Shown here: positions 10,323 through 55,333 of the stretch, in pieces
How the letters are laid out: every line of letters begins with the position of its first letter
How positions within the stretch are numbered: the stretch's first letter is position 1
Virus record (IMG/VR): IMGVR_UViG_3300027822_000002
DNA: 64,000 nucleotides
Source: a virus
Direction: 5' to 3' (one strand)
The notes under the pieces: generated by a model
The model's input: only the letters and a program-made list of their open reading frames with translations
The model's database searches: none
Told to the model about the DNA's origin: nothing
Program-made: the position numbers and the translations under genes

Positions 10323-10943
10323 GGGGTTTACCTTCCTTATTATAGCGGCGAGGAGCATCTTTTCTGACACCCCCCGCCTCACCTTGGTTGCAACTTAACG
10401 CCTCGGATTGCCAAGACGACAAGGTTGGATTTTTTCTACAAAATTTTTCGGGGCTTGTCAATTTATTTCTGGCATAAAAAATCCTCGCGCGCTGTTTTGA
10501 ATGTGAAATAGGGTAATCGTTGGTGTGGAATACTATGCGCACGGTGGGAGCGGCGGCCCTGAAATAGGGGGGGTGGGGGGTCTCCCTTGGGCCGGTGTTC
10601 ACGTTTTGTTCTGGCTGGTTTGGGACAGCATTCCGACAGTTGTTCACGGTTTGTTCCAGTCTCACCTACTACATGTGGTATGTCATGCCCCTAATCAGGG
10701 GTCTAACCCCCGTGAAATGGGAGACTACCTACTACATGTTGTGTTTGATGACAGGTTGTCGCACGTATGCGCTACCCGCGACGGTGTCATGGGTGGTGTG
10801 CACGTGTGTGTGATGCGGGGGATGTGAGGGGGGAGATAGATACCACATACAGTGGTGGGGGAACGTTAGTGACCACGGCGGCGGGGCTTAGTATCGCTAT
10901 GTTAACGACCTATTTCCCCGCACTGTGGGGTAATACTTACCCC

Positions 10944-11135
10944 TTAACCTTGAGGAGATAGGCGCTGAAGCCGATCAATCATCTGATGCAGCGCCTTTGA
11001 TGATGTCATTTCATCTCTCGTTACACCTTCATCGTTGGTGTATCTGACACGGTATGTATCTCCATACCTCTCGTGTACGGTTATGCCGTTGTCCTTCAGG
11101 ATGTCTGTGTATTGGTGTATGTTGTCTTTGTACAT
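10944..11135 (-). CDS. hypothetical small protein
   Basis: AGGAGA RBS 7 nt before ATG; protein-like composition. Confidence 0.4.
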   Translation of the reverse strand: MYKDNIHQYTDILKDNGITVHERYGDTYRVRYTNDEGVTRDEMTSSKALHQMIDRLQRLSPQG

Positions 11136-11371
11136 TTGTATGTTCTCCTATTGGTGCGGATGTAGTTGGGGGGTTGGGGATATACCACACATCAGGGGTC
11201 GGACCTGAGTATGCGGCATTCATGCGGGGCTAATCGTGTTGGGAACTATCCAAACGCATTCAGATGAGGCAGTAAGTAGATCGCCATAGGGTAGCAGGAC
11301 ATCCATGGTTTCTGCACTCAATGGATGTGTAGACCACTTGCGAGTTTGTTTGATGTGGATGATATACATAC

Positions 11372-11568: not shown

Positions 11569-11585
11569 TAATCTTCCCTCCTAAA

Positions 11586-11610
11586 GAGGATGCGGGGCTT
11601 TCGCCCCACA
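11586..11610 (-). terminator. hairpin GGGGC-GAAA-GCCCC followed by a U-rich run, downstream of the 11623..12240 gene
   Basis: Read directly on the minus strand. Confidence 0.4.
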
Positions 11611-11622
11611 CCCAGTTGGTAG

Positions 11623-12240: not shown

Positions 12241-12561
12241 GATAGTCTCCTTTGATCCCCTAAAGGGGCTTGATTGGCGGGCTGATTGCCGCCGACCACT
12301 CCAATCATCCAGATTAATGTGGCAGGATTGAGACTGGATTTGGGAATCTTCAAGGTGATATTGTGGCAAGAATGTGGCAGCGGTCAGCTTTCAGGGAAAG
12401 CTGGCGACCCACACGAAAACTGTCGAGCATACGCGGGTGATGTGCGCGCAGTACGCGTATAGGAGCGCGTATATACCCGCATACCTTCATGCGCAACTAT
12501 GGGTGAAGCTGGGGACTAGAGCATCCTATTTAAATCAGTTTGAATGAAGAATGGGTGCGGG

Positions 12562-12587
12562 GCTTGAGAAAGAATGCGTTAGCATTC
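12562..12587 (-). terminator. hairpin AGAATGC-GTTA-GCATTCT followed by a U-rich run
   Basis: Perfect 7 bp inverted repeat 10 nt after the stop codon of 12597..12785. Confidence 0.4.
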
Positions 12588-12596
12588 TGCATGAGA

Positions 12597-12913: not shown

Positions 12914-13450
12914 TTATACATCTTCTTCCCTTTCAGTTAGCTCATTGACATTTATATTTATTCCTAAATCAGACAGCCTCTCGCTAAGCTCCGCAGCAAG
13001 CTCAACAGCAGTCTCATGCTTTATAATCTCTTCGTTTGGCTTAGTTATGCCGATTGCTTTACCAATCTCCCTTAAGGCACTCACTCTAGCCGATGAGGTA
13101 TCTCCGTTGTCAGCTTCCTTCCAAATACTCTCATACCATCTCTCATGGCTGCGGTATTGTATCTCCTTCAGTCTTTTCTCTTTATTATCAATGAGTTCCT
13201 TGATTCTGGCATCAATGTGTGGCTTGTGCCTTAACTCTGAGGCTTTCACCGAGACTGCCGAGTCTGCCATGGAGGTATTGTAGGCTGATCGGTATGCCTC
13301 AAGTTGAGTGGCACCTGATGTGATGTGCTTACAGAACATCTCTTGACACTCAGTCAGGCCACTTGTCACCACTAGTGTTTTGGAAGCAGGGTTCTTGTCT
13401 TCTACTAGCATATCATCCGGGGTTTTTAGGGTTGTGCGGGGCTTAGTCAC
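12914..13450 (-). CDS. terminase small subunit (Terminase_2-like)
   Basis: LTECQEMFCKHITSGATQLEAYRSAYNTSMADSAVSVKASELRHKPHIDARIKEL fits the TerS helix-turn-helix consensus. Confidence 0.55.
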   Translation of the reverse strand: MTKPRTTLKTPDDMLVEDKNPASKTLVVTSGLTECQEMFCKHITSGATQLEAYRSAYNTSMADSAVSVKASELRHKPHIDARIKELIDNKEKRLKEIQYRSHERWYESIWKEADNGDTSSARVSALREIGKAIGITKPNEEIIKHETAVELAAELSERLSDLGININVNELTEREEDV

Positions 13451-14722: not shown

Positions 14723-15010
14723 ATGAAGGATGAAAAGATGGATTCAAGATATAAACAAGCAAAAGAGATGTATGACGGACTCCCCACACACATAAAAGAA
14801 GATGTGGTGGATGCGGGGCTTTGGGCTCGCGACACTCTCATGAGGGAGGAGGGTGAGGGACATATCATAAATGTCACCGCGAATGACAAACGAGAGTGTT
14901 CCTGCTCTTTTGCAAAACCAGAATGGGGTGGGGATCACTCTGGACCCTATATGGAACTTGCATCAGAAGCCATAGTTATGGCTGTATGCACCTACCTGAA
15001 CGGAATGTAA
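14723..15010 (+). CDS. hypothetical protein
   Basis: ORF. Confidence 0.4.
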   Translation: MKDEKMDSRYKQAKEMYDGLPTHIKEDVVDAGLWARDTLMREEGEGHIINVTANDKRECSCSFAKPEWGGDHSGPYMELASEAIVMAVCTYLNGM

Positions 15011-15454: not shown

Positions 15455-15733
15455 GTGGTGGGGTTCTGTCACTTGGGTTGGATTTGTTTGTGCGGGGCTT
15501 GTCTTCGTTGCGGTGATGTTTTGGAGGAGTTTGTGAGGCTCATTAAAGCAATGAAGATGGCTGCATTATCTGTAGTGACTGTTGCCGCTTGTGCAATCCC
15601 AATCATTCTGATCGGGTGGTTCGCGGCCTTCATGGGGAACAAATATGGGATGCTGGTCGCGGTCATGATTTTATGCTTCTCGGCATATCCGTTCCTAGTT
15701 GGTGTGTGCCTCATCACTATGGATGATAAATAG
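15455..15733 (+). CDS. multi-TM small membrane protein
   Basis: Hydrophobic helices. Confidence 0.4.
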   Translation: MVGFCHLGWICLCGACLRCGDVLEEFVRLIKAMKMAALSVVTVAACAIPIILIGWFAAFMGNKYGMLVAVMILCFSAYPFLVGVCLITMDDK

Positions 15734-16276: not shown

Positions 16277-16660
16277 ATGGCAGATGTGAGAAAAATATCA
16301 GACATTGTCAATGCTGTCACTATTGAAGCTCAGAAGAAGATGGTTGAGATAGGGGCGGATTATGCGGAGCTTAGTTGCGCGATCTCAATTGTTAATGCTG
16401 CAATCTTCTCGAACGTGGCCATTGATACATCCGACAAAAAATTCATTGAACAATGCTTGGCAGCAAGGAGCTTGTTCGACAAATATTTCAAATCAGTACG
16501 ACTGGTTGGAAGTGTGGATGAGGCATTGAATTATGCCGATAGCGTTTCTGACATGGGTTCCAGAGAATTGGCAGAGAAGCTTTCAGAGGAGTCTGATGGC
16601 AAGATGATAAGAGTTGGAAAGTCCATTGAAGACCTTTTCAAGGGAGACAAATATGAGTGA
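16277..16660 (+). CDS. hypothetical protein
   Basis: ORF. Confidence 0.4.
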   Translation: MADVRKISDIVNAVTIEAQKKMVEIGADYAELSCAISIVNAAIFSNVAIDTSDKKFIEQCLAARSLFDKYFKSVRLVGSVDEALNYADSVSDMGSRELAEKLSEESDGKMIRVGKSIEDLFKGDKYE

Positions 16661-18344: not shown

Positions 18345-20119
18345 TGGTGGAGAAAAGCGGTGCTAAGCTCGTTAGCGAGATGGCCGGAACGACTAAAATA
18401 TTTGGTCGAGATGACAAGCTGGCAGTTGTCTTTTCCGGAAAGCGAGCCTCTTCAAAGAAGGGGCTCGTTGTTCTGCCAGATATTTCTGAGACAGAGGTGA
18501 CGCCTAAACAATCAGCGTTGATGCGGGGCTTTGTCGATCAGGAAAGCGGTTATGTCAAACACTCTGATCTCGGAGAAATTGATCGTTTATCGGAGGTTAA
18601 CCCTCTGAAAGCAGCGGTGCTGAAGGGTATTGAGGACGTCAGGATCACTCAAAAGCGGCAGCAAGAATACATGGGATCGAGAAGAAACCTGTCAGAGCTT
18701 TTGAACTCAACGGCCAAGTCCTTCAAGAAAAACTTCAAGGCCGACGAGGATGCAGACTGGAAAGAATCCCTTCCATTTGCCATCTCTCTTTTGGGTAGAG
18801 ACCTCCCCGGTATTGATGCTGATCTCGACGGCATTAGAGAGAAACTACCAGAGGAGACTGTAAAGAAATTCGATGATTTCAGATCGAAAATACAGACTTC
18901 GTCTTCTTTTGAAGAATCTCTGGAGATTGCCAGCGAACTAATTGACACACCAGATGAAGAAAGTGAGAGTGAAGATAGCAAGGGCGAAGGGGACAACGAT
19001 GATGCGGAATCCGAGCGGGGCAAAGAAGCCTACGAAAAAATGACAAAAATGAATTCGGAAGAAATCAACAAACTGGAACTATCTACCGCCGACAATTATG
19101 GCAAAGAAATCTATGATATTGATGAGTTCATCTATGCCTCGGACGCCTATGGCATAACTCCACATGAAAAAATCAAATGCGAAGATGCCATAGGAGCAAT
19201 CAACAACTTCAAAAGGATAAGTTCCTCCGATTATCAAACCGCAGTTACAGGAAAGATATCCTCCGTGGTTATGGTTGCCAAAAAGAAGTTGGAGTATCTT
19301 CTGTTCTCAAAGATAGACAGAAATTGGCTTTCAGCTCAGCCAGAGGGCAGGCTTGACAACAAGAGGGTTGCATCTGTCCCAACTGGGAACAGGCTAGTGT
19401 TCAAAACAAGAGCTCCTCGAAAGGAAGTTGACACTGCTGTTATGGTATTGGTTGATCTCTCAGGATCAATGCATGGGCGTAAAGTTGAAGTTGCTCAACA
19501 ATGTGCGTTGGTTTTCTCAGAATGCCTAAACAAATGTGGAGTGAACTTTTCTATATGTGGGTTTAACGACCCACATGAAGGCTATTATTTCAAAAATGTG
19601 GATGATGTTCACCCATATCATCGAGCAGAACTTGGTGCAAGTAAGTGTGAAGATATGTGCAGAAGCAGAGGTGGAGAAAACAGCATACGCAGCAACATGT
19701 CTTACGACTACAGCTTAGGAAAAACAAGAAGATATCATGCTGGTCATCTTTATGTCTACAAGAGTTTTCAAGACAAATACATTCAAGTCAGAAAGAGTAT
19801 TCTGGCAATGGAACACCATTGCGGGGGCAACAACTATGATTGCTCCGCCCTTCACCATTCCTATCATATGTTGAAGAAGCAACAAGAAAGAAAGAAGGTG
19901 ATGTTTGTTCTTTCGGATGGACAGCCATCGTCTTGGTCAGAGGCTTACCACCCTACAGAAGAAAAGATCAAGGAGATTGAGGCGGATAAGTCTGTCATTT
20001 TGATGGGTATTGGTATCCTCCACAACACTGCTGAGATGTATAAAAATCACACAGTTGTCAAAAGTGTTGATGATTTAGGAAACAGATGTTTTGAAACGTT
20101 AGCAGCACAACTGTCTTAG
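18344..20119 (+). CDS. cobT: vWA-domain protein, CobT-like
   Basis: Metal ion-dependent adhesion site (MIDAS) motif VLVDLSGSM; acidic linker; ATGA overlap with cobS. Confidence 0.65.
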   Translation: MVEKSGAKLVSEMAGTTKIFGRDDKLAVVFSGKRASSKKGLVVLPDISETEVTPKQSALMRGFVDQESGYVKHSDLGEIDRLSEVNPLKAAVLKGIEDVRITQKRQQEYMGSRRNLSELLNSTAKSFKKNFKADEDADWKESLPFAISLLGRDLPGIDADLDGIREKLPEETVKKFDDFRSKIQTSSSFEESLEIASELIDTPDEESESEDSKGEGDNDDAESERGKEAYEKMTKMNSEEINKLELSTADNYGKEIYDIDEFIYASDAYGITPHEKIKCEDAIGAINNFKRISSSDYQTAVTGKISSVVMVAKKKLEYLLFSKIDRNWLSAQPEGRLDNKRVASVPTGNRLVFKTRAPRKEVDTAVMVLVDLSGSMHGRKVEVAQQCALVFSECLNKCGVNFSICGFNDPHEGYYFKNVDDVHPYHRAELGASKCEDMCRSRGGENSIRSNMSYDYSLGKTRRYHAGHLYVYKSFQDKYIQVRKSILAMEHHCGGNNYDCSALHHSYHMLKKQQERKKVMFVLSDGQPSSWSEAYHPTEEKIKEIEADKSVILMGIGILHNTAEMYKNHTVVKSVDDLGNRCFETLAAQLS

Positions 20120-20128
20120 GAGCTAGAA

Positions 20129-20608: not shown

Positions 20609-21233
20609 TGACAGCAAACGTTTGTGGGATTATCTACAACCTGTTCTTGTCAAAGAAGGCAGCGGAGTGAAATACAAGTCCGCCGCATTCTCAGATGCTC
20701 ATGCGGCTAAAAAGCTCGGCATCGATGAGACAAAGGTTGCCAGATTTCGCCGGAAGTATTTTGGGCCGCTAACTGCCAAGACCACCGTCGAAAAGGATGA
20801 CCTCTTGAAGGAGATTGAGAACAGTCTCACCAAGGTCAGAGGTGGGTATGTATACAAGGATGGCATAACCGATGAAACAATCGGTGAAAAGTTCGGGCTT
20901 CATTTCTGTACTGTTGGAGTTGCCAGAAAGAAGAAATTCGGCATCTTCCCCAGACGTAGGGATTCAAAATCCAAGAAAGCATCCATGAACGCCATTGAAC
21001 GGCAGGTTGCGGAGCTTCAAAGCACTCTCAGCACAGTTCACCAGATAGTGAGCCAGATCAACCACGACCAAACTGAGCACACGGCGAAAGTGAACGGTTT
21101 CATCGAGGGTTTGAATGCTTCCAGAGAACGGAAGCTGAAATCTGACAAGTTCTATGACTTCAGAGTTGGTGGAAACCCGCCTGCTGAATCTCGTTCAGAA
21201 TCCCCCTTCAAACCAACGGATGGCGATGTTTAA
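20568..21233 (+). CDS. hypothetical protein
   Basis: ORF. Confidence 0.45.
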   Translation: MKLKKKRNTIMDFNDSKRLWDYLQPVLVKEGSGVKYKSAAFSDAHAAKKLGIDETKVARFRRKYFGPLTAKTTVEKDDLLKEIENSLTKVRGGYVYKDGITDETIGEKFGLHFCTVGVARKKKFGIFPRRRDSKSKKASMNAIERQVAELQSTLSTVHQIVSQINHDQTEHTAKVNGFIEGLNASRERKLKSDKFYDFRVGGNPPAESRSESPFKPTDGDV

Positions 21234-21530: not shown

Positions 21531-22151
21531 ATGAGCGATAAACAAAAATGCCTGAACGCCTGCAATGCAGCAAGAGAACTTGCAGAAAAGGCTTTTGCTG
21601 ATAAGGTTGAGAGCGTAGAACCTACACTGTTTGTTACCACAAATGAGGGTGAGGGGTTTGTTTTTGTCATTAGGGATGATGCGGGGTTTTATGCTGGTAT
21701 CAAGGCCGTGACCAGTTCCAAAAACATCATGTCTATGGGGATTATGATTGAGGGCTCCGCAAGGCGAGTTCCCGAGGGTATGAGAAAGCTCTCAAAAGAA
21801 AAGATCATGGAAAACAAAGATTTCTTGGGCGACAAGCATGACTGCATCGTGACATTCTTCGCAAAGGAAGATGCCTACAGTATGAAGATGTGGTCAATCG
21901 ATGATGACAGAAACCTCATCGAGGAAGACGAGAAAGACTTCCTGAATGACGAAGCTGCGAACAACCCTCAGGAAGCAGCAATGATTTGTGGCTTCTCTCC
22001 TATCTTTGGAGATGGTAAAGGCAAAATCCTAAACAGGGAGACGGCAATTGAGATAGGAAGGCGATACAACATGATGGTTGCAGCGGTTAAAAAAGATACT
22101 CCGCTGGATAATTCATTTCCCCTTGCTGATTTTCTCCCCGCCCAAAGCTGA
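21531..22151 (+). CDS. hypothetical protein
   Basis: ORF. Confidence 0.45.
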   Translation: MSDKQKCLNACNAARELAEKAFADKVESVEPTLFVTTNEGEGFVFVIRDDAGFYAGIKAVTSSKNIMSMGIMIEGSARRVPEGMRKLSKEKIMENKDFLGDKHDCIVTFFAKEDAYSMKMWSIDDDRNLIEEDEKDFLNDEAANNPQEAAMICGFSPIFGDGKGKILNRETAIEIGRRYNMMVAAVKKDTPLDNSFPLADFLPAQS

Positions 22152-25945: not shown

Positions 25946-26872
25946 ATGTTTCCTTATATTCTTATACCATGTATAGTTGACATGTCAAATAAGGGATGCT
26001 ACAGGGGAGGTATGAAGCTCATAAACAAGACTGGACTTCCAGACTCTTTTTTGAACTTTGCAGAGAAAGATCCCTACTCTAAAGGACATGCAGACTTCTC
26101 GGTAACTCAGCTAATCGATTCTCCTAAAATATCTCAGCTTCAGGAAGAGAACAATGCGGAGCTTGAGGTTGATGTTGCTGATAGGGTGTGGGCCTTAATG
26201 GGGACTGCGGTCCACTCCATTCTAGAGGGGGGTGCGGGGCCTGATGATATTGTCGAAGAGCGCATTTTTGTCACGGTGAATGGCAAGGTAGTTAGCGGGG
26301 CTGTGGACGTTCTTACGCCCATTGGTGATTCTTATGAAATGGATGACTACAAACTAACCAGAGCATGGTCTGTAATGGCAGACAAGCCTGAATGGGAGAA
26401 ACAGCTGAATACCTATCGGGTGATGCTACATATGAATGGGAAGAAGATTGACAGTCTTAATATTATTGCTATCATACGCGATTGGTCAGCTAAAAAGGCC
26501 CAATTTGACAGGAATTATCCACAAAAACCCATAATCAAGATAGAGATCCCGATTTGGCCGCTTGACAAGGCTGAGGCGTTCCTGCTAGAGAGGGTGACAC
26601 TTCATTCAGCCAGTCGCGCCGCGTCGGAGCCGTTCCCGTGTATTGATATAGAGCGCTGGACAAGACCGGAAAGATACGCTGTAATGAAAAAAGGAACAAA
26701 GCGAGCCTTAAAGATTTGGCCAACCCGTAAGGACGCGGAGAGATATGCTGGTGAGTGCCGGATTAAATTCACTGGGGATTATTTTGTTGAAGAGAGACCT
26801 GCCGAACATGTGAGGTGTGAAGGCAATTACTGTCAGGTCAACCAGTGGTGCAATCAATGGGGTAAATCATGA
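25946..26872 (+). CDS. PD-(D/E)XK superfamily exonuclease, Cas4/RecB-like, with a C-terminal Cys cluster
   Basis: Motif GTAVHSILE, acidic residues, C-terminal C-x4-C-x5-C; sits next to a resolvase and the helicase. Confidence 0.5.
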   Translation: MFPYILIPCIVDMSNKGCYRGGMKLINKTGLPDSFLNFAEKDPYSKGHADFSVTQLIDSPKISQLQEENNAELEVDVADRVWALMGTAVHSILEGGAGPDDIVEERIFVTVNGKVVSGAVDVLTPIGDSYEMDDYKLTRAWSVMADKPEWEKQLNTYRVMLHMNGKKIDSLNIIAIIRDWSAKKAQFDRNYPQKPIIKIEIPIWPLDKAEAFLLERVTLHSASRAASEPFPCIDIERWTRPERYAVMKKGTKRALKIWPTRKDAERYAGECRIKFTGDYFVEERPAEHVRCEGNYCQVNQWCNQWGKS

Positions 26873-27264
26873 GAAGCTTCAAGCAATACGGTCATAATGA
26901 TATTTTAAAAAATCCCAGACCAGTTGTTGAGACTTGGCGAGCCGGGATGGAAAGAGAAAGCATGGAGGGTTGGAGGGAGGTAGAGGTACCATACATTACT
27001 CTTGACCCTTCTTGGAAGATATCTGTTATACCGCCCTTTAATGGTGCTGCTGCTAGATTTCTCATAGGGCACAAAAATGATGAAGATGTATATGTGTCTG
27101 TTTATCTAGATACCTGCGAAGCCCTTGGGTGTTCTGAAGATGTTTATTGGGAAACTTATCCAGTAGATGGGTGTGTTCACAGATGCTCATTAGAGAATGT
27201 TGAAGAGTTAAAGAAAACAATAAGAAAATCAATAAGACAACAGATCAGAAATGTGAGGAAATAA
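26869..27264 (+). CDS. hypothetical protein
   Basis: ORF, ATGA-coupled. Confidence 0.4.
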   Translation: MRSFKQYGHNDILKNPRPVVETWRAGMERESMEGWREVEVPYITLDPSWKISVIPPFNGAAARFLIGHKNDEDVYVSVYLDTCEALGCSEDVYWETYPVDGCVHRCSLENVEELKKTIRKSIRQQIRNVRK

Positions 27265-36262: not shown

Positions 36263-36320
36263 TGCTTTGGTAGTTATTGTCTTTTTTGCGGGGCTTTACT
36301 GGTGGCTCTTCTGCTCTTAA

Positions 36321-43107: not shown

Positions 43108-44556
43108 TTATTTAAGGGCTTGAGCCGCTCCTGCCGCAAGATTGGTTGGCTGAGCCATAAAGTTGAATTGCCTTAATAGCTCATCAATACCCTTCATCTC
43201 AGCAAGGATTTTTGTGCTTTGTCTCTGCTTTTCTTCGGGAGCTAGGCTGATGTTCTCTGAGATGTCATTCAAAGCGCTTCGTAAGTCGGTTTTTGCCTTC
43301 ATCAGGGAAGTATAATTTTTCACTGCGTTGTCAACAGTTTTTGACCCAGCTCCAGATGCCTTGAGTTTAGCCTTAAGGGCTTCTCCTTGAAGCTTAACAC
43401 GCTGTTCCTCAAGCCCCACCCTGTAGATATTGATGGCATCGTTGAACTTGCCGCTTCTATATGCCTCTCGTGCAGCAGCTCTTCTTTCCTGAGCGTTAAC
43501 AAGACTTTTGGAAAATTCTCGTTGAGAAGCAGTCACTGATTTGAAAGACGGAAGAGAAGCCGCGGCTCCCCTACTGATATTTGTCAGGGCATTGCTGTTG
43601 GTTCCGGCGGCAATGTTAAAGCCAAGAGAAGCAAGAGCAATGCCCTTATCTCTCTCCATCATTTCTTCATTCCGATTTGTCATATCTTGAATGATACGAT
43701 CATATTCAAGAGACGCATCCCCTCTATCAGAGGAGATACCCTTTAACTCAGAAAGTGCCTGAGTGAAGTAGTCAGTTGCCGTGGGGGCTGGAGTTGGGAT
43801 GATGGAGGTTGGCCCCTGTGGGTCAGAAATTGGAGGTTCTCTAAATGCATCCGGATGCCTACCCGGCAGGGGTGGCAGGGTTGCAATTCCACTGGGGGTG
43901 TCGGCCTGTGCTCTTATTGTTGTTTGAGCTGGGGGAGTTTGTGCAAAGTTAAGAGCCTCAGAAACAGCTCTATTAGCTTTTTGTACATTGCGAGGCATAT
44001 TGAGTGGGCTGTCATACAAGATGCTGCCCAATCCAGAAGCAGCGCTACCAAGTCCCTGAGCTGCTTTGGCTGGGTAGTATTGCCAACGAGGAGTGGCTTT
44101 AGGATCAAGGTACTGATCCAGAAATCCTCCGGCTCCTCCAGTTGTCTGTCTTCCGATCTGTGCTGGATGTCTGCTGTTTAACATATCCCAAGGGATACCA
44201 CCGCCATTAGCATAACCAACTGGGCCGCCCTGAGCAAAATTAACCGGTGGTATACCGGCATTCTGCGGAGCTTGGCCTTGAGGAATAGTGGGTAGGCCAC
44301 CGTTCATTGGGGTTGGGGCCTTTGGCATTCCAGATGGGAATGTACTATCTGGAAGAGACGGTGTTTGATTTAGAACGTCATCTAGAACAGAGGTTTGCGG
44401 GGCTTGCCCTGAAAACTCTTTACGCATTTCCGAACGTCTATCCAGCTCCGCCATAACGAGAAACGGCGGAACTTCCCCACTAGGACTACGCATCTGTTGA
44501 TCAAGTTGATCATCAGAGAAATTCTTTAGAAGGTCGTGAGCTTTGAATAGGTTCAT
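43108..44556 (-). CDS. internal virion/ejection protein (Q/A/P-rich)
   Basis: Composition, and position between the fibers and the giant protein. Confidence 0.5.
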   Translation of the reverse strand: MNLFKAHDLLKNFSDDQLDQQMRSPSGEVPPFLVMAELDRRSEMRKEFSGQAPQTSVLDDVLNQTPSLPDSTFPSGMPKAPTPMNGGLPTIPQGQAPQNAGIPPVNFAQGGPVGYANGGGIPWDMLNSRHPAQIGRQTTGGAGGFLDQYLDPKATPRWQYYPAKAAQGLGSAASGLGSILYDSPLNMPRNVQKANRAVSEALNFAQTPPAQTTIRAQADTPSGIATLPPLPGRHPDAFREPPISDPQGPTSIIPTPAPTATDYFTQALSELKGISSDRGDASLEYDRIIQDMTNRNEEMMERDKGIALASLGFNIAAGTNSNALTNISRGAAASLPSFKSVTASQREFSKSLVNAQERRAAAREAYRSGKFNDAINIYRVGLEEQRVKLQGEALKAKLKASGAGSKTVDNAVKNYTSLMKAKTDLRSALNDISENISLAPEEKQRQSTKILAEMKGIDELLRQFNFMAQPTNLAAGAAQALK

Positions 44557-46267: not shown

Positions 46268-48342
46268 TATACTGTTCCAAATTTAGGCGGTGATGCGGGG
46301 CTCCCTGTCTTTGCTTGTCTAATTTGCCCCATCATTTGATCTATTGCTGCAATGCCAGCATTAGTGTCTCCATCTCCTACATGTGAGACAACATCACTTG
46401 GTACTACATATTCTCCTGAAGACAGGCGCGCCGGTTCACGCCCATCGATGGTCGCAGGAATGCTGTCAGACACCCCGCTACCGGGGCCTATGACCCCCCC
46501 ACCTTGACTTTCTGGAGATTCCATGCCAGAAAATGTGTCCATAAAATCGTCAAATGCTTCATCACCAAGAACCAGCCTAAGCATCTCAAGGTCCATTTGA
46601 GGATTCTCAGTCTGTCCTTGAATAGCCAGCAATGCTCTTTGCATGAGTTTGTCAACTGTCTCAGGTGCAACATCTTGAGGCTGTGCAAGCTGATCGGTCT
46701 GAGTGACTGGACCACCTTCCGCAAATCCACGAACTTGCCTAATTGAAACAAACTCAGGATCAAGACCCGGTCGATAATCCGGGGGGATATCAGCCGTTTC
46801 AAATTCCGCAAATGCCTCTTCTTCACCACGCCCAGAACTTCTTCGCCGTGTACTGCCACCATCATCCTGAAAAGCTTGACCAAGTAACGCTACACCGCCT
46901 ACTGTCAGGAGTGGGTTTTCTTTAGCGAATGTTCCAACCTTTTTCAAAGCGCTTTGAGGATCTAAAATATCTCCTTGCGGGGCTTGAACATCTCCGGGTA
47001 CATTTCCTAAATTGGAGGTGCTATCTAGATTTGTTAAGTCTGGGCTAGCCAAATCACCAACATCAGCTCCAGCAAAGTCTTGTCCAAGAGTAGTGTCCGT
47101 AGCAAATGGATCACTAAACTGTGGTCTGCCAAAATTTGTGACTTCTGCTTCAAATGGAGAGATGTTGCCGGGAACGCCTTGTGGGCTTGTTACATTTTGA
47201 GGCGCGAATCCCAGAGGTTGAGATGTCACCCCTTGAGGAGTTACAGAATCTCCGAAAACTCCCGGCAATCTACTGTCTGTAATTGGCTTAAAGCTTTCAG
47301 GGGGAGTTATCTGTAAATCGGTTGGAACCCTAGGACCGAACGGTGAGGTTTGTGACCCAAAGGGATCAACAAGATTTTCTGGCGTGGCAACTGAAATATT
47401 ACCACCAACATCTATTGTACCGGGGCTTACTTGCTGCTGAAGGGATGGATCAAATATAGGATTGGTCGAACCTAGCGGCCCTTGAATGGGGTCTACTGCT
47501 CTTGGTCCAAGATTTTGTGGGAGGATTCTATCTTGGAACTTAAAATTAGTGAAGCTGTCAAGACCCTCGCCAACTTCGCCAGAAATATCTGGCAACGGTT
47601 CAAAACTTTGAGGTGGCTGCAACGGAGTTGGCTCCGGAACTGGAGGAGCATTTAACAGAGTATCGGTGAAGTTAGGGGGTAGTGATTCTCCACCCAATGG
47701 GGGAACATTTCCTGCCGTCAGAGATGGGTCTAGGGCTGGAGGTGGTTGCAAGGCCGGAAGCGGCTGAGCACCGGGAAGATTGCCTGCAATGTTGGATTGA
47801 ATACCCTCTAACGAAGGTGGCGTTATTCCTTGCAATCCACCCACATTGGAGCTAACAGTTTGAAGACCTGTTGCGGGGTTTATCGGGGCTGCTTGAGATA
47901 TGGGAGCTGCGGGTTGCAACGCTGCTTCAGGTAAGGTGGAGAGTTCCGGCAAGCCAGCAGTGAGTTCTGGTAGAGCGCTAGCGCCAGCTACTTCAGGTAG
48001 TGCAGCAGCACCAGCAACCTCAGGCAATGCTGCCCCAGCCACCTCAGGCAGTACCGCTGTAGATGCTGCAAGTTCTGGGATAGCCCCAGCGGCTAGCGGT
48101 CCAGTTGCAGCTAGTGGAGCTGTAGTTGCTGGTAGCCCGGCAAGCCCAGCTCCTAGTGTGCTGCCAGCAAGGGGGGCTGTAGTTGCGGCAGTTAACGCCG
48201 GCGCTCCTAAACCAGCCAATCCCGCTCCGCCTGCTAGGGGGGCTGCGGTCGCAGTAATAGCTGGTAGAGCGGCAGCTGTTCCAGCTCCGGCTGCGCCCGC
48301 TGCTGCCGGTAGGGCTGCTGCTGCTATTGGTGCTCCGGGCAT
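46267..48342 (-). CDS. internal virion protein with N-terminal Ala/Pro-rich tandem repeats (ALPEVAGAA)
   Basis: 27 nt imperfect tandem repeats at about 47940-48110. Confidence 0.5.
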   Translation of the reverse strand: MPGAPIAAAALPAAAGAAGAGTAAALPAITATAAPLAGGAGLAGLGAPALTAATTAPLAGSTLGAGLAGLPATTAPLAATGPLAAGAIPELAASTAVLPEVAGAALPEVAGAAALPEVAGASALPELTAGLPELSTLPEAALQPAAPISQAAPINPATGLQTVSSNVGGLQGITPPSLEGIQSNIAGNLPGAQPLPALQPPPALDPSLTAGNVPPLGGESLPPNFTDTLLNAPPVPEPTPLQPPQSFEPLPDISGEVGEGLDSFTNFKFQDRILPQNLGPRAVDPIQGPLGSTNPIFDPSLQQQVSPGTIDVGGNISVATPENLVDPFGSQTSPFGPRVPTDLQITPPESFKPITDSRLPGVFGDSVTPQGVTSQPLGFAPQNVTSPQGVPGNISPFEAEVTNFGRPQFSDPFATDTTLGQDFAGADVGDLASPDLTNLDSTSNLGNVPGDVQAPQGDILDPQSALKKVGTFAKENPLLTVGGVALLGQAFQDDGGSTRRRSSGRGEEEAFAEFETADIPPDYRPGLDPEFVSIRQVRGFAEGGPVTQTDQLAQPQDVAPETVDKLMQRALLAIQGQTENPQMDLEMLRLVLGDEAFDDFMDTFSGMESPESQGGGVIGPGSGVSDSIPATIDGREPARLSSGEYVVPSDVVSHVGDGDTNAGIAAIDQMMGQIRQAKTGSPASPPKFGTV

Positions 48343-48660: not shown

Positions 48661-50835
48661 TCATGATTTTCCACCATCTGGCCTAATCCTCAACCTTGGA
48701 GAGCCAACTCTCCAACCAGTGCCAAGCTCCGCACTATCTACTTTAAAGATCATAGACCTACCCCTAACCCTAACATGGAGAAGGTTAGTATATTGCTCGA
48801 TGGGAGAAGTTGCTGTCCTTGCAGCAATTTCCGGATCAGTCTCTGAATAAGATTCACCCGGCCAATCTTGTGAGATCACAGAGAATGTTGCTGTTGGGTT
48901 AGCATTCGTGGATGATCTAAAGGTCACGTCGGGTATGATTTTGTCGGCAAAAATAAACTCATCTCCATCGCCAATTTCCAGTGGAGATGACAGTATAAAT
49001 GGGGACAACGGCACAGCCGGGGTTTGGGATGTGTCATCAAATCCCGTATCGTGGAAAAAGTAATTGTTGTTCTCATCCACAGCCCTTGGTCTATTACCAA
49101 AACTTGTATCAATCCAAGCAAGCCTTCCAATAGAACCGTAGTACCAAATATTATCTCTGTAGTTGTAAATGACATATCTGTCTGGAAGGGTTGAGGACTC
49201 AGACGGATAAAACCATATCACCTCATGGAATTGTCGATTAGTGCCAGCAACGACATTGAATTCATTATCGAAATTGATATCCAGAAAAACCTTATCCCAG
49301 ACTGTGCAGGGAATAGGTTCAACTGAACCTCTGTAGGAATAGAAATTATCCCTACCCATCCAGTAAGTTGTATCATTTACTGTTACAGAAGCTGCTGGAC
49401 CCCAAATAGATATGTTTGAAGAGACCGGCTTAATGCCGTAGAAGAACGGTGGGCCAATATACTGCATAGATGAGAGAGATGTGTCAGTAAATATTAATAT
49501 TTCTGCTCTTGTCTCTAGCGCCGTTACAAAACGTGAGCCCGTTTGAATGCGGAGTTCCCCAGCAGAGTTTGTAATGTCTGGTACCCAAGTTATCATTCCC
49601 TCAGAATCAGACCATCTTACTAGAAGTCTGTCTTGATCTGAGGACCCTACAGGATTTGTTGCAAATGCTACAACATTTCTGGCATCTGACACCAAGACCT
49701 GAGCTGCTACAGTGGGGACACCACTATCCGCCCCAGAAAGAGTGGAGATTGCAACTGATGCAGTCCCACCGTTTTGATCCCAGAAATACAGAACTCCGTT
49801 ACGAGGACAAGAAACCAAATCTTCGCCAAAGTTATCGTATGTCCAGTATCTTGGTATACCAGTTTGAACACTTGTGGAACCAGCTTCACCCCAACCAGTT
49901 GCGGTTGATTCAAAATATTTGAACGAAACAAAACTACCGCCGCCAGCTACTGTAGAGGTTGCGACTTGAGATGACTTAGCTGTTATTTCGTATGTGTTGG
50001 CAGTTGAGTTTGCAATCAAAAATGAGCCAGTCAAAAACTCCGGATCTATACCACCTATGGCAGCTGCATCGTCAAGAATGACATAATCACCATCTGAGGC
50101 TCCATGAAGGGTGTGATTAACAACAACCGTTCCGCTAGTATTTGTGGTGTCGAGGGGGTTATTAACTGTAGCGCTAAGACGGACTGCACTGCCTCCCCAA
50201 GGTCCTGACCCCCAACCTGTTCCAGACGTTCCTGAAGCCGTTCCGGTGTTAATTTGATATGTAGCAAGAACGCTTGCACCACCACCTGATGCCGTACTTG
50301 TTGCGGCAGTAGTGACTTCAATCTCATATGTATCGGAATCAATAAGAGTGGTTATTTGATGTTCGTCATTTAGTTCTGCTGCCGGGATACCATTAGTCGT
50401 TGCTGCACCAGAGAATGTGACAAAATCATTCATGATGGCACCATGAGAGACGTGAGTTACAGTTACTGTAGTGGAGGTATCTACTGTAGAAAAAGGATTA
50501 GATGCAAGGGCTACATTCTCTGTTCTGTTTGGGGTGATGTCTGTAAAGACTCCACCCTCTTCAGCATACAGTTTTAGGCTTGTGCCAAAAGCGGTTAAAT
50601 CGCTGCCGTCAGTTGTCGTCCAAGAGAATAGATTTCTGCACAATCCCAAGAATGTATTGGATGTTACCTTCTGCCATCCACCAATAGTTTCCGGCTTTCC
50701 ATTTCTGAATCTTATAAGATCACAGTCAAACCACCCGCCCTTATTGGAATAGCTTGTCCAATCTCTATTTATTCCGGGAGCAAAATCTAGCTTGAAATAC
50801 TTCACTAGTCTCTCACCCTGAGTATCCACTTCCAA
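48661..50835 (-). CDS. tail nozzle / tail tubular protein B-like
   Basis: Size, beta-rich composition and weak resemblance to T7 gp12. Confidence 0.4.
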   Translation of the reverse strand: MEVDTQGERLVKYFKLDFAPGINRDWTSYSNKGGWFDCDLIRFRNGKPETIGGWQKVTSNTFLGLCRNLFSWTTTDGSDLTAFGTSLKLYAEEGGVFTDITPNRTENVALASNPFSTVDTSTTVTVTHVSHGAIMNDFVTFSGAATTNGIPAAELNDEHQITTLIDSDTYEIEVTTAATSTASGGGASVLATYQINTGTASGTSGTGWGSGPWGGSAVRLSATVNNPLDTTNTSGTVVVNHTLHGASDGDYVILDDAAAIGGIDPEFLTGSFLIANSTANTYEITAKSSQVATSTVAGGGSFVSFKYFESTATGWGEAGSTSVQTGIPRYWTYDNFGEDLVSCPRNGVLYFWDQNGGTASVAISTLSGADSGVPTVAAQVLVSDARNVVAFATNPVGSSDQDRLLVRWSDSEGMITWVPDITNSAGELRIQTGSRFVTALETRAEILIFTDTSLSSMQYIGPPFFYGIKPVSSNISIWGPAASVTVNDTTYWMGRDNFYSYRGSVEPIPCTVWDKVFLDINFDNEFNVVAGTNRQFHEVIWFYPSESSTLPDRYVIYNYRDNIWYYGSIGRLAWIDTSFGNRPRAVDENNNYFFHDTGFDDTSQTPAVPLSPFILSSPLEIGDGDEFIFADKIIPDVTFRSSTNANPTATFSVISQDWPGESYSETDPEIAARTATSPIEQYTNLLHVRVRGRSMIFKVDSAELGTGWRVGSPRLRIRPDGGKS

Positions 50836-52949
50836 TTTGCTGCTGTAATAGTTCTAACAGTAAAAGGTGTGTTGAAATCTAGAATATTAGGAAGAACACT
50901 ACCAGCTATGATTACAACATTTGTTGTATCTACAATTATGTGATTTGATCTCGCTGCATTCCCTGCATCCCCTAAATTAGACATCAAAACTCTTTGACCT
51001 ACAGTGTAATTATATTCTGTTGTAGTATTTTCCAGCCAGAGTTGAACATCCTCTGGCCTAGCTCCAAGGCCATGAGCTTGAGTGGTTTTAGTAGATATAG
51101 CGTAGGTTCCTAGATCATATTCAGTCCATGTCTCGCCAGCAGCTGTTGTCTGGGTTGTATTGTCGTTGAACCTAAGAGTTCCTACATTAGCAACTTCACC
51201 GTTCTGGAAATCCCATCGTGTAGCACTATGATCCCACGCTGCCCGTATCGTTGATCCGGAAATGAACTCCACATCATTTGCTTTACTTGCATGAGATTCT
51301 CCATAAAGGGTTAAGCCACCACCAAGTGAAGTAGTTGAACCACCGCTAAGATCGAGATTGCTGGTGGTAGACCCCCTGATAAGAGTATCAATACCACTTA
51401 ATGCGTTTCCTTCAAAATCCCAAAGTCCTGCACTGTTGTCCCAAGACATGTTAATGATGCTACCAGTACGGAATTCCACATCATTAGCTTGGGAGCCATG
51501 TGTGGAGCCATACAGTTTTATATTAGAGCCAGTGTCAGTTGCGTTGCCACCAGAAATTTCCAAGAATGCAGTGTCAAGATTTCTATATATCAAGTCCTTA
51601 CGCATTTGCAGGCCAACAGAGCCTGTTATGTCAGCAAATCTTGCGAAATCAACACCATCAACACAAAACGAAAGGAAGTCAGTTGTCCCTGTGTTTTCCC
51701 CGTACACACCAGTTCCATTTCCAGCACCGTCAGCGTCAACAGAAAATACTGGAGCAATAGCCGACCCTTGGTCATTCGCTTTGAATTGATGCCCGCTAGA
51801 TGCCTCAATATGACCAGAGACCACAAGCTCATCAGCATCCAAGGTCATTCTTGCAACACCAGAACTGGCATACCAAGTATGGATATTTCCACTATCATCC
51901 CATAGATATACAAGACTGGCAGATGATTTTATGTCAAAATCCAAAGCCTTAGTTGCGTGAGATTCACCGTACATACTTACTGTAGCCCCGAGGGCTCCGG
52001 TACTACCGCCACTAACAGTTAATCCACCTGCTGTATCCCCCCGAACAAGATCATACAAATCGGTGTTAATAGCTCCAACTGTGATTTCTGAATCAGAAAT
52101 CTGTAGCCTTTCGCTGGTGGCATTGTCATCAATTCCAGTAGATGTTAAAGCCCCGCATGTAAGAGCACCAACATTCGTAATTGCATTACTCTGGAAATCA
52201 AAGCTAGTGGTATTCCATTCAAGAATTACTGTGGAATCTTCTTTAAACTCTATATAGCTTGGCTTAGTGGCATGGGTGCTTCCGTATCCAACAAATCCAC
52301 CGCCCAAATCAACGGCATTAGAGCCAAAAACTCCTAATGCTCCAGTTGTTGAGGTGACCCTAACGATCGGGTAGACTGAAGTGTCATTGGGTCCAAGCTG
52401 TAGGGAAGCATCTTCAATACCCAATCTCTTGGCAGATGCGTTATCATCAATACCGTTTGTAGTAAATGCGGAGGTTATCGTTAGTGTGCCGGAAACAGTC
52501 CAGTTACCAGTAATTGTTTCGGCGTCATCTACTTTAGCTTCATCACCATCAACTACTGCAAAGCAATCTGTTCCATCACAGAAAACTTCTCCAACTTTAC
52601 CATTCTTGACGGCTACGCCAGTACCGCCAGATGTCTTAATAGTAAGATCGAAACCACCTGAGGTATTGTTTCTGACGATATAAGACTTTTCTACCGAAGG
52701 AATAACAATATTTCTTCCAGTCGTCAGAGTACCGCTGACATTGAGAATTTTCTTCCTTGCTTCGTCTGTAACGGCATTAAAGGATGTGAGAGTATAGTCA
52801 GTAGCGTCAGTGTGGGTGATAGTTGCAACACCACTGATCGCCTCTTCGAGAAGGACAAGATTGTCATCAGTGGTTCTTCCCCAAGTCCCACTTTGCTCCC
52901 CATCCCCGAGATTTTCGATTCTCAATCTAGTAGAGAATGTGCTTACCAC
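50805..52949 (-). CDS. tail fiber protein with four internal repeats of about 85 aa (YG[ES][ST]HA[ST]K...WD..)
   Basis: Repeated blocks YGSTHATKPSYIEF, YGESHATKALDFDI, YGSTHGSQANDVEF and YGESHASKANDVEF. Confidence 0.5.
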   Translation of the reverse strand: MVSTFSTRLRIENLGDGEQSGTWGRTTDDNLVLLEEAISGVATITHTDATDYTLTSFNAVTDEARKKILNVSGTLTTGRNIVIPSVEKSYIVRNNTSGGFDLTIKTSGGTGVAVKNGKVGEVFCDGTDCFAVVDGDEAKVDDAETITGNWTVSGTLTITSAFTTNGIDDNASAKRLGIEDASLQLGPNDTSVYPIVRVTSTTGALGVFGSNAVDLGGGFVGYGSTHATKPSYIEFKEDSTVILEWNTTSFDFQSNAITNVGALTCGALTSTGIDDNATSERLQISDSEITVGAINTDLYDLVRGDTAGGLTVSGGSTGALGATVSMYGESHATKALDFDIKSSASLVYLWDDSGNIHTWYASSGVARMTLDADELVVSGHIEASSGHQFKANDQGSAIAPVFSVDADGAGNGTGVYGENTGTTDFLSFCVDGVDFARFADITGSVGLQMRKDLIYRNLDTAFLEISGGNATDTGSNIKLYGSTHGSQANDVEFRTGSIINMSWDNSAGLWDFEGNALSGIDTLIRGSTTSNLDLSGGSTTSLGGGLTLYGESHASKANDVEFISGSTIRAAWDHSATRWDFQNGEVANVGTLRFNDNTTQTTAAGETWTEYDLGTYAISTKTTQAHGLGARPEDVQLWLENTTTEYNYTVGQRVLMSNLGDAGNAARSNHIIVDTTNVVIIAGSVLPNILDFNTPFTVRTITAANWKWILRVRD

Positions 52950-52987
52950 TGTCTTTTCCTATTCTATTTCCTATAATTATATAACAA

Positions 52988-55333
52988 CTAGTCTTTTCGT
53001 AGAGTTATACTCTTCAAGAAGTGTACAGCAGACCCTGTTGCTGTGGGATTTCTCATCAGTACACCAACTTTTTGTGATGTTTCACCGGGTGTAAAGCTGA
53101 GAATAAAGCTCTGATCAGAAGCACTATTTCCAACTAGTTGGTTTAGATTGTTTGTTTCGCCAACATCATCATTAATATTAAGCTCAAAAACCGCCGTGCC
53201 CGATGGACAATTTACCGTAAAAAGGATTTCAGAGTGAACACCGACAGAGAACCCAGCAACTACAATACTTGCCCCCGCAAATACAGCATCATCTGTCAGT
53301 GTAAGAGCGTCTTCAACAGCATCATAACCCAACGATGCATTGCCTTCAGTCCAAGTGCCTGTTGTATCAGTCGTGAAATCATCATCAAGTATGATAGTAC
53401 CTTGAAAGGTATCCGTGGTGACTGTCCACGTATCTCCCTGAGTTCTACCGACAAGAACATCAGCAGTGTGAACTGTCAGTTCCATGTCTCCAGTTGTCAA
53501 CCGTAACTGCATTGACTCTCCAGCAAACATGACAGCATCATCCGAAGTCCAATCAACCAAAACTCCGGTATCGTCATCAACTGCATTTGATTTTATGCGA
53601 AATTCAACGGTCGACCCAGAAACGCCAACCGCAAGGCCAGAAGCTGGAATGCTGCCCGGTGTAATTAGGTTTGATCTTACAACCGTTTCTTCTGCCGCTC
53701 CAGTTACATCTGTGAAAAGACCGGTAAAACTAACACTGTCATTAAATCTTGGAGCTGTCGTTGCGTCTGTATAAGTGTTTCCCTCAGAACCCGGAACCAA
53801 GTTTGTTGAATCTAAGCGTCCACCAGATTTAGGCTGGAAGGCTGCTATGACCTCTTGGATGTTTTTAAAACCAGTAAAGCTCGGACCAGCAAAAAGCTCA
53901 TCGTAGCTATCAGCTTGACCTGTGGTTGCGGGGTCAATATCAACATTATTCTGAATACGATCGGAACTGTTAAAACTAGAATGACCCGGACTAACGTTAT
54001 CGGCAATGACATTTCCAAAGACAGTATGTCCCATGGATTGTAGGGTCCGAATGAACGGATAGGCACTAGGGCTTGTATCCCAATCAGTATTTATTACAAC
54101 AGTGTTGTTGGCAATTGTAGAATTTGCGGAGTTGTAGATAGTAATTCCGTGACTAATTGCAGTTACAACAAGATTATCAACACACTCTACAGTGTAGTTG
54201 TTAAGAAATATGTCTTCTAGAAAAATGCCTTGGTAAACGTGTTTAGTCGGTATATTGTCGAATCTTCCGGCGTAGTGGACATTCCCATTGATTTTTAGTC
54301 CGGTAATGTTCGTTGCGGGCAATGGTTGGAAAAAATCACCGTGATTTGAATCCGCGGGGCTTGACAGGGGGGAGTGTGAAATATTTCTTGAATAACTGCT
54401 ATTATCTATATCTCCACCGGGAACAATAGCGTCTGCCCCCCAGTCATAAAAAACATTATCTTCTATAGTGAATGGTCCACCCGGCATATTGTAAAGACGC
54501 CAAGAACCCCTCATCGTGCAATTTGTTATTGTTACATTGGAGACTAGGGTATTCCCGTCCGAACCAAATATTCCCCTCCAAGTGTAAGAGATAATGTTTG
54601 CCGGATAACCAAACACTTGAACAAGCTCTAAAAGATTAGAGGCAATGTCACAGTCATCAAATGTTACATCGTCATTAGTGTCACGCCATAGCCATGCAGC
54701 ACCATTGGCATTGTCCACGCCAAGTTCGAATGGAAAATACATGTCAATGCTTTGAAAGCGAACACTGGTTAATGCGGTATTTTGTACTGATCCACTTGAT
54801 ACAATTCTAGCTTTATTATCTGGGTCTGCCGATGCTATTGTCCACAATGAGGTGTGAGCGCCATTCCACCACAGTTCAGTCCACGTGTAACTTCGACCAT
54901 ACCTGAACTCCATAGATTTCCCACTACGGGTAGCTACGGATATTGCAGCAACAGTGTCAGCCTCCGCATCACTTGATACTGTATAAACATTAGCTCTTGT
55001 TGGAATAACTAAAGTAAACTGGTCACTAGTTCCAAAGGCATTTGAGGCAGTACATCCCGTCCAAGTGTATACGGCATCGGTTACTAGTGCTTTGGCTCTA
55101 ATTCCATCACCGCTTACTTCAAAGTGATCTCCACCTACGGTTCTCGTGCCCAAAATTAGGGATGTTGGAATTCCTCCAGAATGCCACAACGCGCGATTTG
55201 CAAAGCCTGCCTGTGCTGGAACAGATGCATCATTTAATTGACCAAAACCCCCCGCCAATATCTGATCTCCAACATGTGGTTTTGTTGATGATCGGTCAGC
55301 TTGAGTGGGTCTAGTTGGGCTGAAGAATCCCAT
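52988..55333 (-). CDS. tailspike with right-handed beta-helix (pectate-lyase fold)
   Basis: Repeated N-x-[IV]-x-NN and N.T[IV].N rungs; a candidate polysaccharide depolymerase. Confidence 0.5.
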   Translation of the reverse strand: MGFFSPTRPTQADRSSTKPHVGDQILAGGFGQLNDASVPAQAGFANRALWHSGGIPTSLILGTRTVGGDHFEVSGDGIRAKALVTDAVYTWTGCTASNAFGTSDQFTLVIPTRANVYTVSSDAEADTVAAISVATRSGKSMEFRYGRSYTWTELWWNGAHTSLWTIASADPDNKARIVSSGSVQNTALTSVRFQSIDMYFPFELGVDNANGAAWLWRDTNDDVTFDDCDIASNLLELVQVFGYPANIISYTWRGIFGSDGNTLVSNVTITNCTMRGSWRLYNMPGGPFTIEDNVFYDWGADAIVPGGDIDNSSYSRNISHSPLSSPADSNHGDFFQPLPATNITGLKINGNVHYAGRFDNIPTKHVYQGIFLEDIFLNNYTVECVDNLVVTAISHGITIYNSANSTIANNTVVINTDWDTSPSAYPFIRTLQSMGHTVFGNVIADNVSPGHSSFNSSDRIQNNVDIDPATTGQADSYDELFAGPSFTGFKNIQEVIAAFQPKSGGRLDSTNLVPGSEGNTYTDATTAPRFNDSVSFTGLFTDVTGAAEETVVRSNLITPGSIPASGLAVGVSGSTVEFRIKSNAVDDDTGVLVDWTSDDAVMFAGESMQLRLTTGDMELTVHTADVLVGRTQGDTWTVTTDTFQGTIILDDDFTTDTTGTWTEGNASLGYDAVEDALTLTDDAVFAGASIVVAGFSVGVHSEILFTVNCPSGTAVFELNINDDVGETNNLNQLVGNSASDQSFILSFTPGETSQKVGVLMRNPTATGSAVHFLKSITLRKD

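Follow-up and report, generated by a model that had tools for sequence, protein, structure and literature searches.

Some phage genomes accumulate the Chi octamers of their hosts (Bobay et al., 2013, PMC3784561; Zheng et al., 2025, PMC12315714). Phage LLS has 23 Chi sites, divided 20:3 between the strands; its commonest octamer is Chi itself, followed by one that overlaps it, near-variants are frequent, and half of the sites lie within 22% of the genome. P1, with 50 Chi sites, requires RecBCD and RecA for circularization via its terminal redundancy, and P. aeruginosa MD8 has 32 copies (32:0) of a different, host-specific Pseudomonas Chi word. Chi counts in Chi-rich phages are not explained by codon usage, many related phages have none, and Chi-rich lambdoid phages typically have no recombination module (Zheng et al., 2025, PMC12315714). 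Here we analyze a short DNA word, TGCGGRGYTT, with core octamer GCGGGGCT, in the IMG/VR virus record IMGVR_UViG_3300027822_000002. The analyzed stretch (64,000 nt, called the window below) belongs to an uncultured tailed phage whose genome maps as a circle. Together with locus L003, which supplies genome coordinates 64001–73206, the window makes up a genome of 73,206 bp with 45.1% GC.

The over-representation of the word is real and strong. The octamer GCGGGGCT occurs 21 times in the window (17 plus, 4 minus), against 0.91 expected from dinucleotide shuffles, which never exceeded 4. The 73.2-kb genome holds 23 copies, where an order-3 Markov model predicts about 2 (z about 15). In the window, GCGGGGCT shares the rank of commonest octamer with the overlapping TGCGGGGC, at 17 plus-strand copies each, followed by another overlapping octamer, CGGGGCTT, and then by GCGGAGCT, a variant matching at 7 of 8 positions. 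The decamer TGCGGGGYTT is present 19 times in the window where 0.16 copies are expected. An initial annotation, made by eye, had proposed such an excess, and exact counting bears it out. Its tally of about 15 plus-strand copies and one minus-strand copy is wrong in number and ratio, although 11 of its 15 plus-strand positions differ from the exact ones by no more than 1 nt. The other four were off by 2–12 nt (38067, 44402, 46283 and 54352 should read 38061, 44397, 46295 and 54354), and five copies were overlooked: 26295 and 46977 on the plus strand and 9535–9542, 39148–39155 and 59139–59146 on the minus strand. About 10 full decamers, as it stated, are indeed found on the plus strand of the window (10), and the minus strand adds 4.

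Counting all single substitutions of TGCGGGGCTT showed that two positions are tolerated, which gives TGCGGRGYTT. This motif, for which less than one copy would be expected, is present 36 times in the complete genome, and 32 of these copies lie in the window. As a whole it is about 40-fold over expectation, and its four variants are each 25–90 times over. In the genome, TGCGGGGCTT is found on the plus and minus strands 10 and 6 times, TGCGGGGTTT 4 and 1 times, TGCGGAGCTT 5 and 4 times and TGCGGAGTTT 2 and 4 times, each against about 0.2 expected (order-3 Markov). The A-variants TGCGGAGCTT (9 copies) and TGCGGAGTTT (6 copies) are therefore over-represented as strongly as the G-variants, and the original definition, TGCGGGG(C/T)TT, was too narrow. 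For the 7-mer TGCGGRG, about 80 occurrences compare with an expectation of about 13. There is no sequence conservation beyond the 10 bp of TGCGGRGYTT, which rules out that the copies are part of a longer repeat or mobile element.

The motif is a signal in the DNA itself. Its copies occupy all six phases, that is, three frames in each orientation relative to genes, and encode peptides as different as AGL, CGA, RGF, SPA, KPR and APQ. Thirty of the 36 copies lie inside genes and six are intergenic. A synonymous codon shuffle within each gene, which preserves the protein, leaves only about 1.5 of the 30 in-gene copies. Because all six frames are used and codon shuffles remove nearly all in-gene copies, a codon or peptide artefact is ruled out, as the initial annotation had argued from copies in different frames and in genes of both orientations. 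An artefact of composition or GC skew is ruled out by the Markov expectations for the two strands (0.85 and 0.75). The plus-strand bias described below holds at 36–54 kb, where the plus strand is slightly C-rich.

Two of the 36 copies are contained in hairpins, one at 11591 and one at about 70646–70672 of the genome. The first belongs to the hairpin GGGGC-TTTC-GCCCC (11594–11607) between two minus-strand genes; the second, AAGCCCCG-N11-CGGGGCTT, is directly upstream of terL, outside the window. With only two copies in hairpins, terminator arms are ruled out as the general explanation. A broader form of this idea is that the word is a functionless hitch-hiker from the host, like a DNA uptake sequence (DUS) or a terminator-derived repeat, or an RNA-level element that forms one half of an intrinsic terminator. 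The 3' arms of intrinsic terminators typically read like GCGGGGCTTTT, and such arms are the main source of matches among the bacterial and viral matches listed in our scans. The word also resembles the Neisseria DUS and the Pasteurellaceae uptake signal sequence (USS) in being a 10–12-nt word at about one copy per 1–2 kb, in both orientations, in several frames and occasionally in hairpins. Uptake sequences, however, belong to the genomes of competent hosts, and one would not expect a phage to be so strongly enriched in them; nor is it apparent why a lytic-type phage should keep a host repeat at 40 times expectation. The 30 copies in genes lack both a partner arm and a T-run, the motif has no significant bias with respect to the direction of transcription (23 co-oriented and 13 anti-oriented, from a manual tally on called genes), and copies turn over between relatives while their density is kept. 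We regard this explanation as very unlikely.

The motif had been described as strongly strand-asymmetric. For the G-variant octamer a bias is real (17:4 in the window, binomial p=0.007; genome-wide 17:6, p=0.035), but it does not extend to the whole motif. The A-variants have no strand bias (7 plus and 8 minus in the genome), and TGCGGRGYTT is divided 19:13 in the window and 21:15 in the genome (p about 0.4). There is a real regional bias of the 7-mer TGCGGGG, which favors the plus strand 24:5 between 10.3 and 48 kb (p=5e-4); this interval covers both gene orientations, and the bias opposes the local GC skew. Strand bias of type III restriction sites, of the kind known for CAGCAG in T7, is ruled out, since the motif is over-represented and present in both orientations. 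Two further spatial claims did not survive. Clustering at 10.8–18.5 and 36–54 kb is not significant against a uniform scan-statistic null (p=0.1–0.5), and the early gene block that was said to hold only T-for-C variants has a copy of GCGGGGCT (26295) and three A-variants (16363, 21008 and 26155).

Exact copies of GCGGGGCT number 17 plus and 2 minus from 10.9 to 54.4 kb; on the arc that runs from 59.1 kb through the origin of coordinates to 9.5 kb, there are 4 minus and 0 plus. The best segmentation into two arcs fits 21 of the 23 copies (permutation p=0.04, with break points chosen post hoc), and to the left of 10 kb most copies with one mismatch likewise lie on the minus strand. These counts would suit a word that marks chromosome polarity or otherwise imparts architecture, in a genome replicated bidirectionally from an origin near 10 kb to a terminus near 55–59 kb. 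The FtsK-orienting polar sequences (KOPS, GGGNAGGG) and the SpoIIIE recognition sequence (SRS, GAGAAGGG) are likewise G-rich asymmetric octamers with one degenerate position, and the hint of arcs of opposite polarity is a further likeness. Here, however, the word is another one and its polarity is marginal: wider definitions are not significant in the same segmentation (GCGGGGYT, p=0.34; TGCGGGG, p=0.73), inclusion of the A-variants gives 21 plus and 15 minus, and the break points were picked after viewing the data. The arcs are also very unequal (about 44 and 29 kb), and the phage showed neither an FtsK-like translocase nor a dif site or partition genes. We consider a polarity word highly improbable. 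A packaging or orientation motif, also proposed initially, calls for consistent polarity, which is marginal for the exact octamer (p=0.04) and not significant for the wider motif. Primase sites are unlikely because the word is 10 nt long and gaps between copies reach 11 kb.

Relatives were retrieved by protein anchors, which is free of motif bias. The closest are three short contigs at 53–69% protein identity. L005 (ERR688347; CobT 53% identical) has three TGCGGGGCTT-type copies in 6.5 kb, where 0.06 are expected; L207 (ERR688347; 724-aa virion protein 69% identical) has two copies of GCGGGGCT in 3.4 kb; and L006 (JGI 3300041084; CobT 59% identical) has one copy in 3.7 kb. The L006 copy alone is homologous in position to a window copy, in CobT at the peptide LMRGFV, and the L005 copies have no positional counterpart in the window. 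Among the closest relatives, then, motif positions turn over while density is kept. Two contigs at about 51–52% identity and 55–58% GC (L208 and L209) have little or no motif. Across 80 CobT-anchored IMG/VR loci (1.19 Mb) we counted 8 copies against 5.4 expected, and across 80 capsid-anchored loci (0.76 Mb; GC 36–60%; capsid protein 67–79% identical) again 8 against 5.4, with 142 occurrences of the 7-mer against 129 expected. Since the closest relatives carry the motif and these 160 more distant loci (1.9 Mb) show no enrichment, the motif is a trait of one narrow lineage, and a family-wide trait is ruled out. Absence from related phages, raised beforehand as grounds for refuting the motif, therefore cuts both ways: the nearest contigs carry it, and the distant loci hold no excess of it.

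The commonest octamers of the distant relatives are ribosome-binding or 5'-UTR (untranslated region) words, tandem repeats and repeated tail-fiber peptides. In the tail-fiber genes of two relatives (L360 17707–20740 and L358 9017–12026), many periodic peptide repeats of the N-T-T-G type (ACCACAGG, 15:0) imitate a strand-specific DNA motif in a k-mer scan. The nearest cultured relative, Pag-Yong1, does not have the same feature: its top repeats are about 25 copies of an intergenic 23-bp palindrome, ATCCGGTTCAGSCTGAACCGGAT (L001/L002, OL906435.1). That 65,014-bp genome is found under three names (Planktothrix phage Pag-Yong1, Synechococcus phage MinM2 and Planktothrix phage Pra-JY27), and its 69% GC looks odd for a phage of a cyanobacterial host.

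Among the roles listed initially, a Chi-like one fits best, and the motif statistics match those of LLS, P1 and MD8. The strong strand asymmetry on which the initial list was premised was overstated. We tentatively read TGCGGRGYTT, at somewhat below even chances, as a Chi-like word recognized by the RecBCD or AddAB enzyme of the host. We infer both the reader protein and the entire mechanism. A short double-stranded-DNA word, strongest as TGCGGGGCTT and with core GCGGGGCT, would be kept abundant by selection wherever coding tolerates it. A host helicase-nuclease of the RecBCD or AddAB type would enter a free end of injected or replicating phage DNA, and an encounter with the word would turn it from degrading DNA to loading RecA. 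The genome would thereby be protected, and recombination would be promoted both for circularizing a terminally redundant, headful-packaged chromosome and for building concatemers.

The likeness to Chi-rich phages is detailed. In both cases a short, G-rich, non-palindromic word is the top octamer (here tied), present in about 23 copies or one per 2–3 kb, tens-fold over expectation, favoring one strand (here more weakly) and not explained by codon usage, with overlapping and 7/8-match octamers ranking next. In both, too, the word varies by host group and many related phages are without it; lineage-specificity is expected if the hosts of the relatives use other Chi words. Also in support are the turnover of copies at a maintained density, the regional plus-strand bias of TGCGGGG, a DprA-like RecA loader, the circular assembly, the P22-like virion genes with the headful packaging that they suggest, and the absence of a DNA polymerase from the scanned open reading frames (ORFs). 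The word is G-rich and includes GCGG, which is contained in the AddAB Chi words AGCGG and GAAGCGG.

Several observations weigh against this reading. The word is new, and ten specified positions, two of them R/Y, are long for a Chi word. The strand bias is weaker than in the described phages (17:6, or 21:15 for the whole motif, versus 20:3 and 32:0), and the enriched A-variants TGCGGAGYTT are unbiased (7:8); a permuted genome would explain a weaker orientation bias than in cos phages. A concentration near one putative end is without statistical support (p=0.1–0.5). Unlike the LLS class, this phage carries its own ERF, exonuclease, RusA, PDDEXK and DprA-like genes. When 185,579 genomes were scanned for pairs of decamers lying no more than 31 nt apart, no candidate host emerged: the matches listed (at least 120) are tandem repeats and terminator arms, mostly in high-GC genomes. 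The phage is nonetheless most economically filed as a further case of enrichment in a Chi-like word, one that departs from its class in having a recombination module.

Other searches for the host or for unrelated carriers gave little. A scan of metagenome contigs for the host found nothing, a word-indexed search for homologues of the phage's GcrA-like protein returned the query alone, a literature search for the motif sequence gave irrelevant matches only, and the sample accessions did not turn up in the literature. L298 was rejected as an unrelated motif-rich carrier, as its copies stem from tandem intrinsic terminators, and L233 has only weak enrichment, confounded by coding strand. The matches listed from the pair scan of viral contigs include several relatives, by way of a duplicated coding segment in homologues of gene 64511–65506, a scaffold-like gene beside the GroES-like gene. 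These short tandem duplications of the relatives (L216 8592–8634, L260 1344–1377 and L271 5780–5813, noted together with position 64878 of the genome studied here) encode repeats of the ASPAG/ASSAG type and carry TGCGGRGCTT antisense by chance.

If the word is a Chi sequence, it offers a candidate Chi for a host that has never been cultured and could act as a marker for host prediction. The stocking of host Chi words by phages would then extend beyond enteric and Pseudomonas phages, and to a phage with recombination genes of its own.

The other described class of dispersed phage words is that of nick sites. Phage tf has 14 copies of the 9-mer TACTRTGMC, all nicked (5'-TACT/RTGMC-3'); the nick sites of T5, of phiKMV-like phages and of tf and its relatives are on one strand only, and their positions are similar among the tf relatives (Glukhov et al., 2012, PMC3517423). 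By analogy, TGCGGRGYTT could be the site of a phage-encoded sequence-specific nicking endonuclease, one of four HNH/EndoVII-type ORFs, and the packaged DNA would then have localized single-strand interruptions. Both words are non-palindromic consensus sequences of 9–10 nt with two degenerate positions, present in many copies above chance, inside genes and in a lineage-specific form, which fits co-evolution of a nickase and its sites. Four HNH-family ORFs are available in this phage, and two motif copies lie shortly downstream of one of them (35780–36262). The multi-copy, short, asymmetric consensus thus agrees with the T5-like role suggested initially, but known nick motifs occupy a single strand, whereas the present word, known from assembled sequence, is on both (21:15, or 17:6 for the main variant). 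Its positions are mostly not conserved in relatives, the CobT copy common with L006 being the only one, and 36 sites far exceed those of any known nicked phage. EndoVII-type enzymes, moreover, are usually structure-specific resolvases. Taken together, we judge nick sites quite unlikely.

The ten specified positions, the two tolerated substitutions, the occurrence in both orientations and the lack of conservation beyond 10 bp are typical of the site of a monomeric DNA-binding protein. The word could therefore bind another sequence-specific double-stranded-DNA-binding protein, of phage or host, for example a protein that organizes or condenses the genome, the TerS-like protein acting at many pac-like sites, or a self-marking system that tells phage DNA from host DNA while phage nucleases are at work. 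Lineage-specificity would agree with this, as would the many nuclease genes and the location of the TerS-like gene in the motif-densest stretch. Against it, no candidate reader was identified, we know of no phage system with about 36 dispersed intragenic sites of this kind, terminase small subunits normally recognize a single pac region, and the partial strand bias of the G-variants is left unaccounted for. This alternative seems unlikely. It is possible, if doubtful, that the word is not a host Chi at all and is instead the address of an undescribed phage-specified system, such as self-marking or nicking. In that case a phage protein (an HNH-family nuclease or the TerS-like protein) may read about 36 dispersed sites on two strands; such a system could organize, protect or process the chromosome, with word and reader co-evolving in a narrow lineage. 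If the word is a nickase site or another phage-specified site, no denser two-strand example would be known, and its reader would be expected among the unannotated genes. Whether Chi-like or phage-specified, the roughly 36 positions constrained at synonymous sites show selection on the DNA itself, which matters when such genomes are annotated and recoded.

In the left part of the window, the copies are TGCGGAGTTT at 3009..3018 (–), 3100..3109 (+) and 8885..8894 (–), TGCGGAGCTT at 7337..7346 (–), the overlooked TGCGGGGCTT at 9534..9543 (–), and TGCGGGGTTT at 10320..10329 (+), which touches the start codon of the minus-strand gene 9943–10320. The octamer core GCGGGGCT then occurs at 10881..10888 (+; GGCGGGGCTT, without the 5' T) and at 11224..11231 (+; TGCGGGGCTA). 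Full TGCGGGGCTT copies follow on the plus strand at 11591..11600 (intergenic, in the small hairpin), 12556..12565 (intergenic), 13435..13444 (antisense to codons 3–6 of the TerS-like gene), 14812..14821, 15491..15500 and 18522..18531 (in CobT, over the conserved peptide LMRGFV shared with L006). TGCGGAGCTT is found within the TerS-like gene at 12986..12995 (–), and on the plus strand at 16363..16372, 21008..21017 and 26155..26164, the last in the exonuclease gene. Between 21 and 34 kb there are also TGCGGGGTTT at 21680..21689 (+), 27843..27852 (–, antisense in the ERF gene) and 33587..33596 (+), the overlooked core at 26295..26302 (+; AGCGGGGCTG) and TGCGGAGTTT at 31526..31535 (–).

Farther right, TGCGGGGCTT is at 36287..36296 (+), shortly downstream of the HNH gene 35780–36262, and at 36432..36441 (+), 39147..39156 (–, overlooked), 44396..44405 (+), 46976..46985 (+, overlooked), 52148..52157 (–) and 59138..59147 (–, overlooked). 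The core alone is present at 38061..38068 (+; TGCGGGGCTG), antisense in the gene of the 2196-aa virion protein, at 41992..41999 and 46295..46302 (both +; TGCGGGGCTC) and at 54354..54361 (+; CGCGGGGCTT). The remaining copies are TGCGGAGCTT at 40700..40709 (–), 44264..44273 (+) and 48724..48733 (–), TGCGGGGTTT at 47872..47881 (+) and TGCGGAGTTT at 60666..60675 (–).

Identical proteins are encoded in two independent assemblies of the phage, from Logan (SRR1313734, 73,236 bp) and ENA (ERZ27237539, 73,347 bp). Because the two break at different points and exceed 73,206 bp exactly by assembler k-mer overlaps (30 and 141 nt), they suggest a circularly permuted or terminally redundant chromosome. No relative at the DNA level was found among 50,697 phage records. 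The nearest cultured relatives, at about 30–36% protein identity, are Planktothrix phage Pag-Yong1/MinM2, DSL-LC04, Roseobacter phages CRP-901 and CRP-902 and Pelagibacter phage HTVC027P. Structural and lysis genes include P22-like ejection, stabilization and tail-fiber proteins, the 2196-aa virion protein, a capsid protein and a lysozyme; the P22-like virion genes suggest headful packaging with free ends. A CobS-like AAA protein, CobT and a Twinkle-type primase-helicase were also seen, and GroES-like, portal, TerL and GcrA-like genes sit outside the window. An integrase, like a DNA polymerase, was not found among the scanned ORFs, and no known RecBCD inhibitor was detected in about 70 of them.

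The recombination kit is unusually rich, in addition to the primase-helicase. A plus-strand module at 25946..28037 consists of an exonuclease (25946–26872), an ORF without assigned function and an ERF annealing protein (27264–28037). RusA is at 25535–25924 (–), the DprA-like RecA mediator or loader at 6074–6556 (–; E=1.5e-51) and a PDDEXK nuclease at 30877–31365. The HNH/EndoVII-type ORFs are at 22397–22765 (–), 30647–30988 (+), 35780–36262 (+) and 57585–58028 (–); one of the four is placed in the middle of the virion module, between adaptor and tail genes.

The TerS-like gene (12914..13450, –) matches four PHROG TerS families (best E=1.9e-12) and Pfam Terminase_2 at E=8.6e-4, below the curated cut-off. 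Its surroundings are a candidate pac neighborhood, as context only. It lies among early genes, about 16 kb from TerL (about 69119–70603, outside the window) and not beside it. A search of PDB gave no relatives of TerL or of the TerS-like protein, Rfam gave no match, and no iterons were found near 10–14 kb. Upstream of terL, outside the window, is a gene for a GcrA-like cell-cycle regulator (L003 1716–2192, genome about 71245–71721). This family is typical of Alphaproteobacteria and their phages, and the gene hints at the host.

Two minor repeats were also noted. An inverted repeat of 15 nt at 13618–13670 (GCCCCCACATGTTTC / GAAGCATGTGGGGGC), with 93% complementarity and a spacer of 23 nt, is found next to the TerS-like gene in the divergent intergenic region. 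It may serve as an operator, as part of an origin or as a terminator. The word CCTTGAGGA occurs 7 times on the plus strand (10948, 33341, 44276, 47231, 48439, 59080 and 61477) and never on the minus strand, against about 0.5 expected, in differing frames and gene orientations. Its one-mismatch variants are divided 18:18, and the strand excess is probably a chance extreme.

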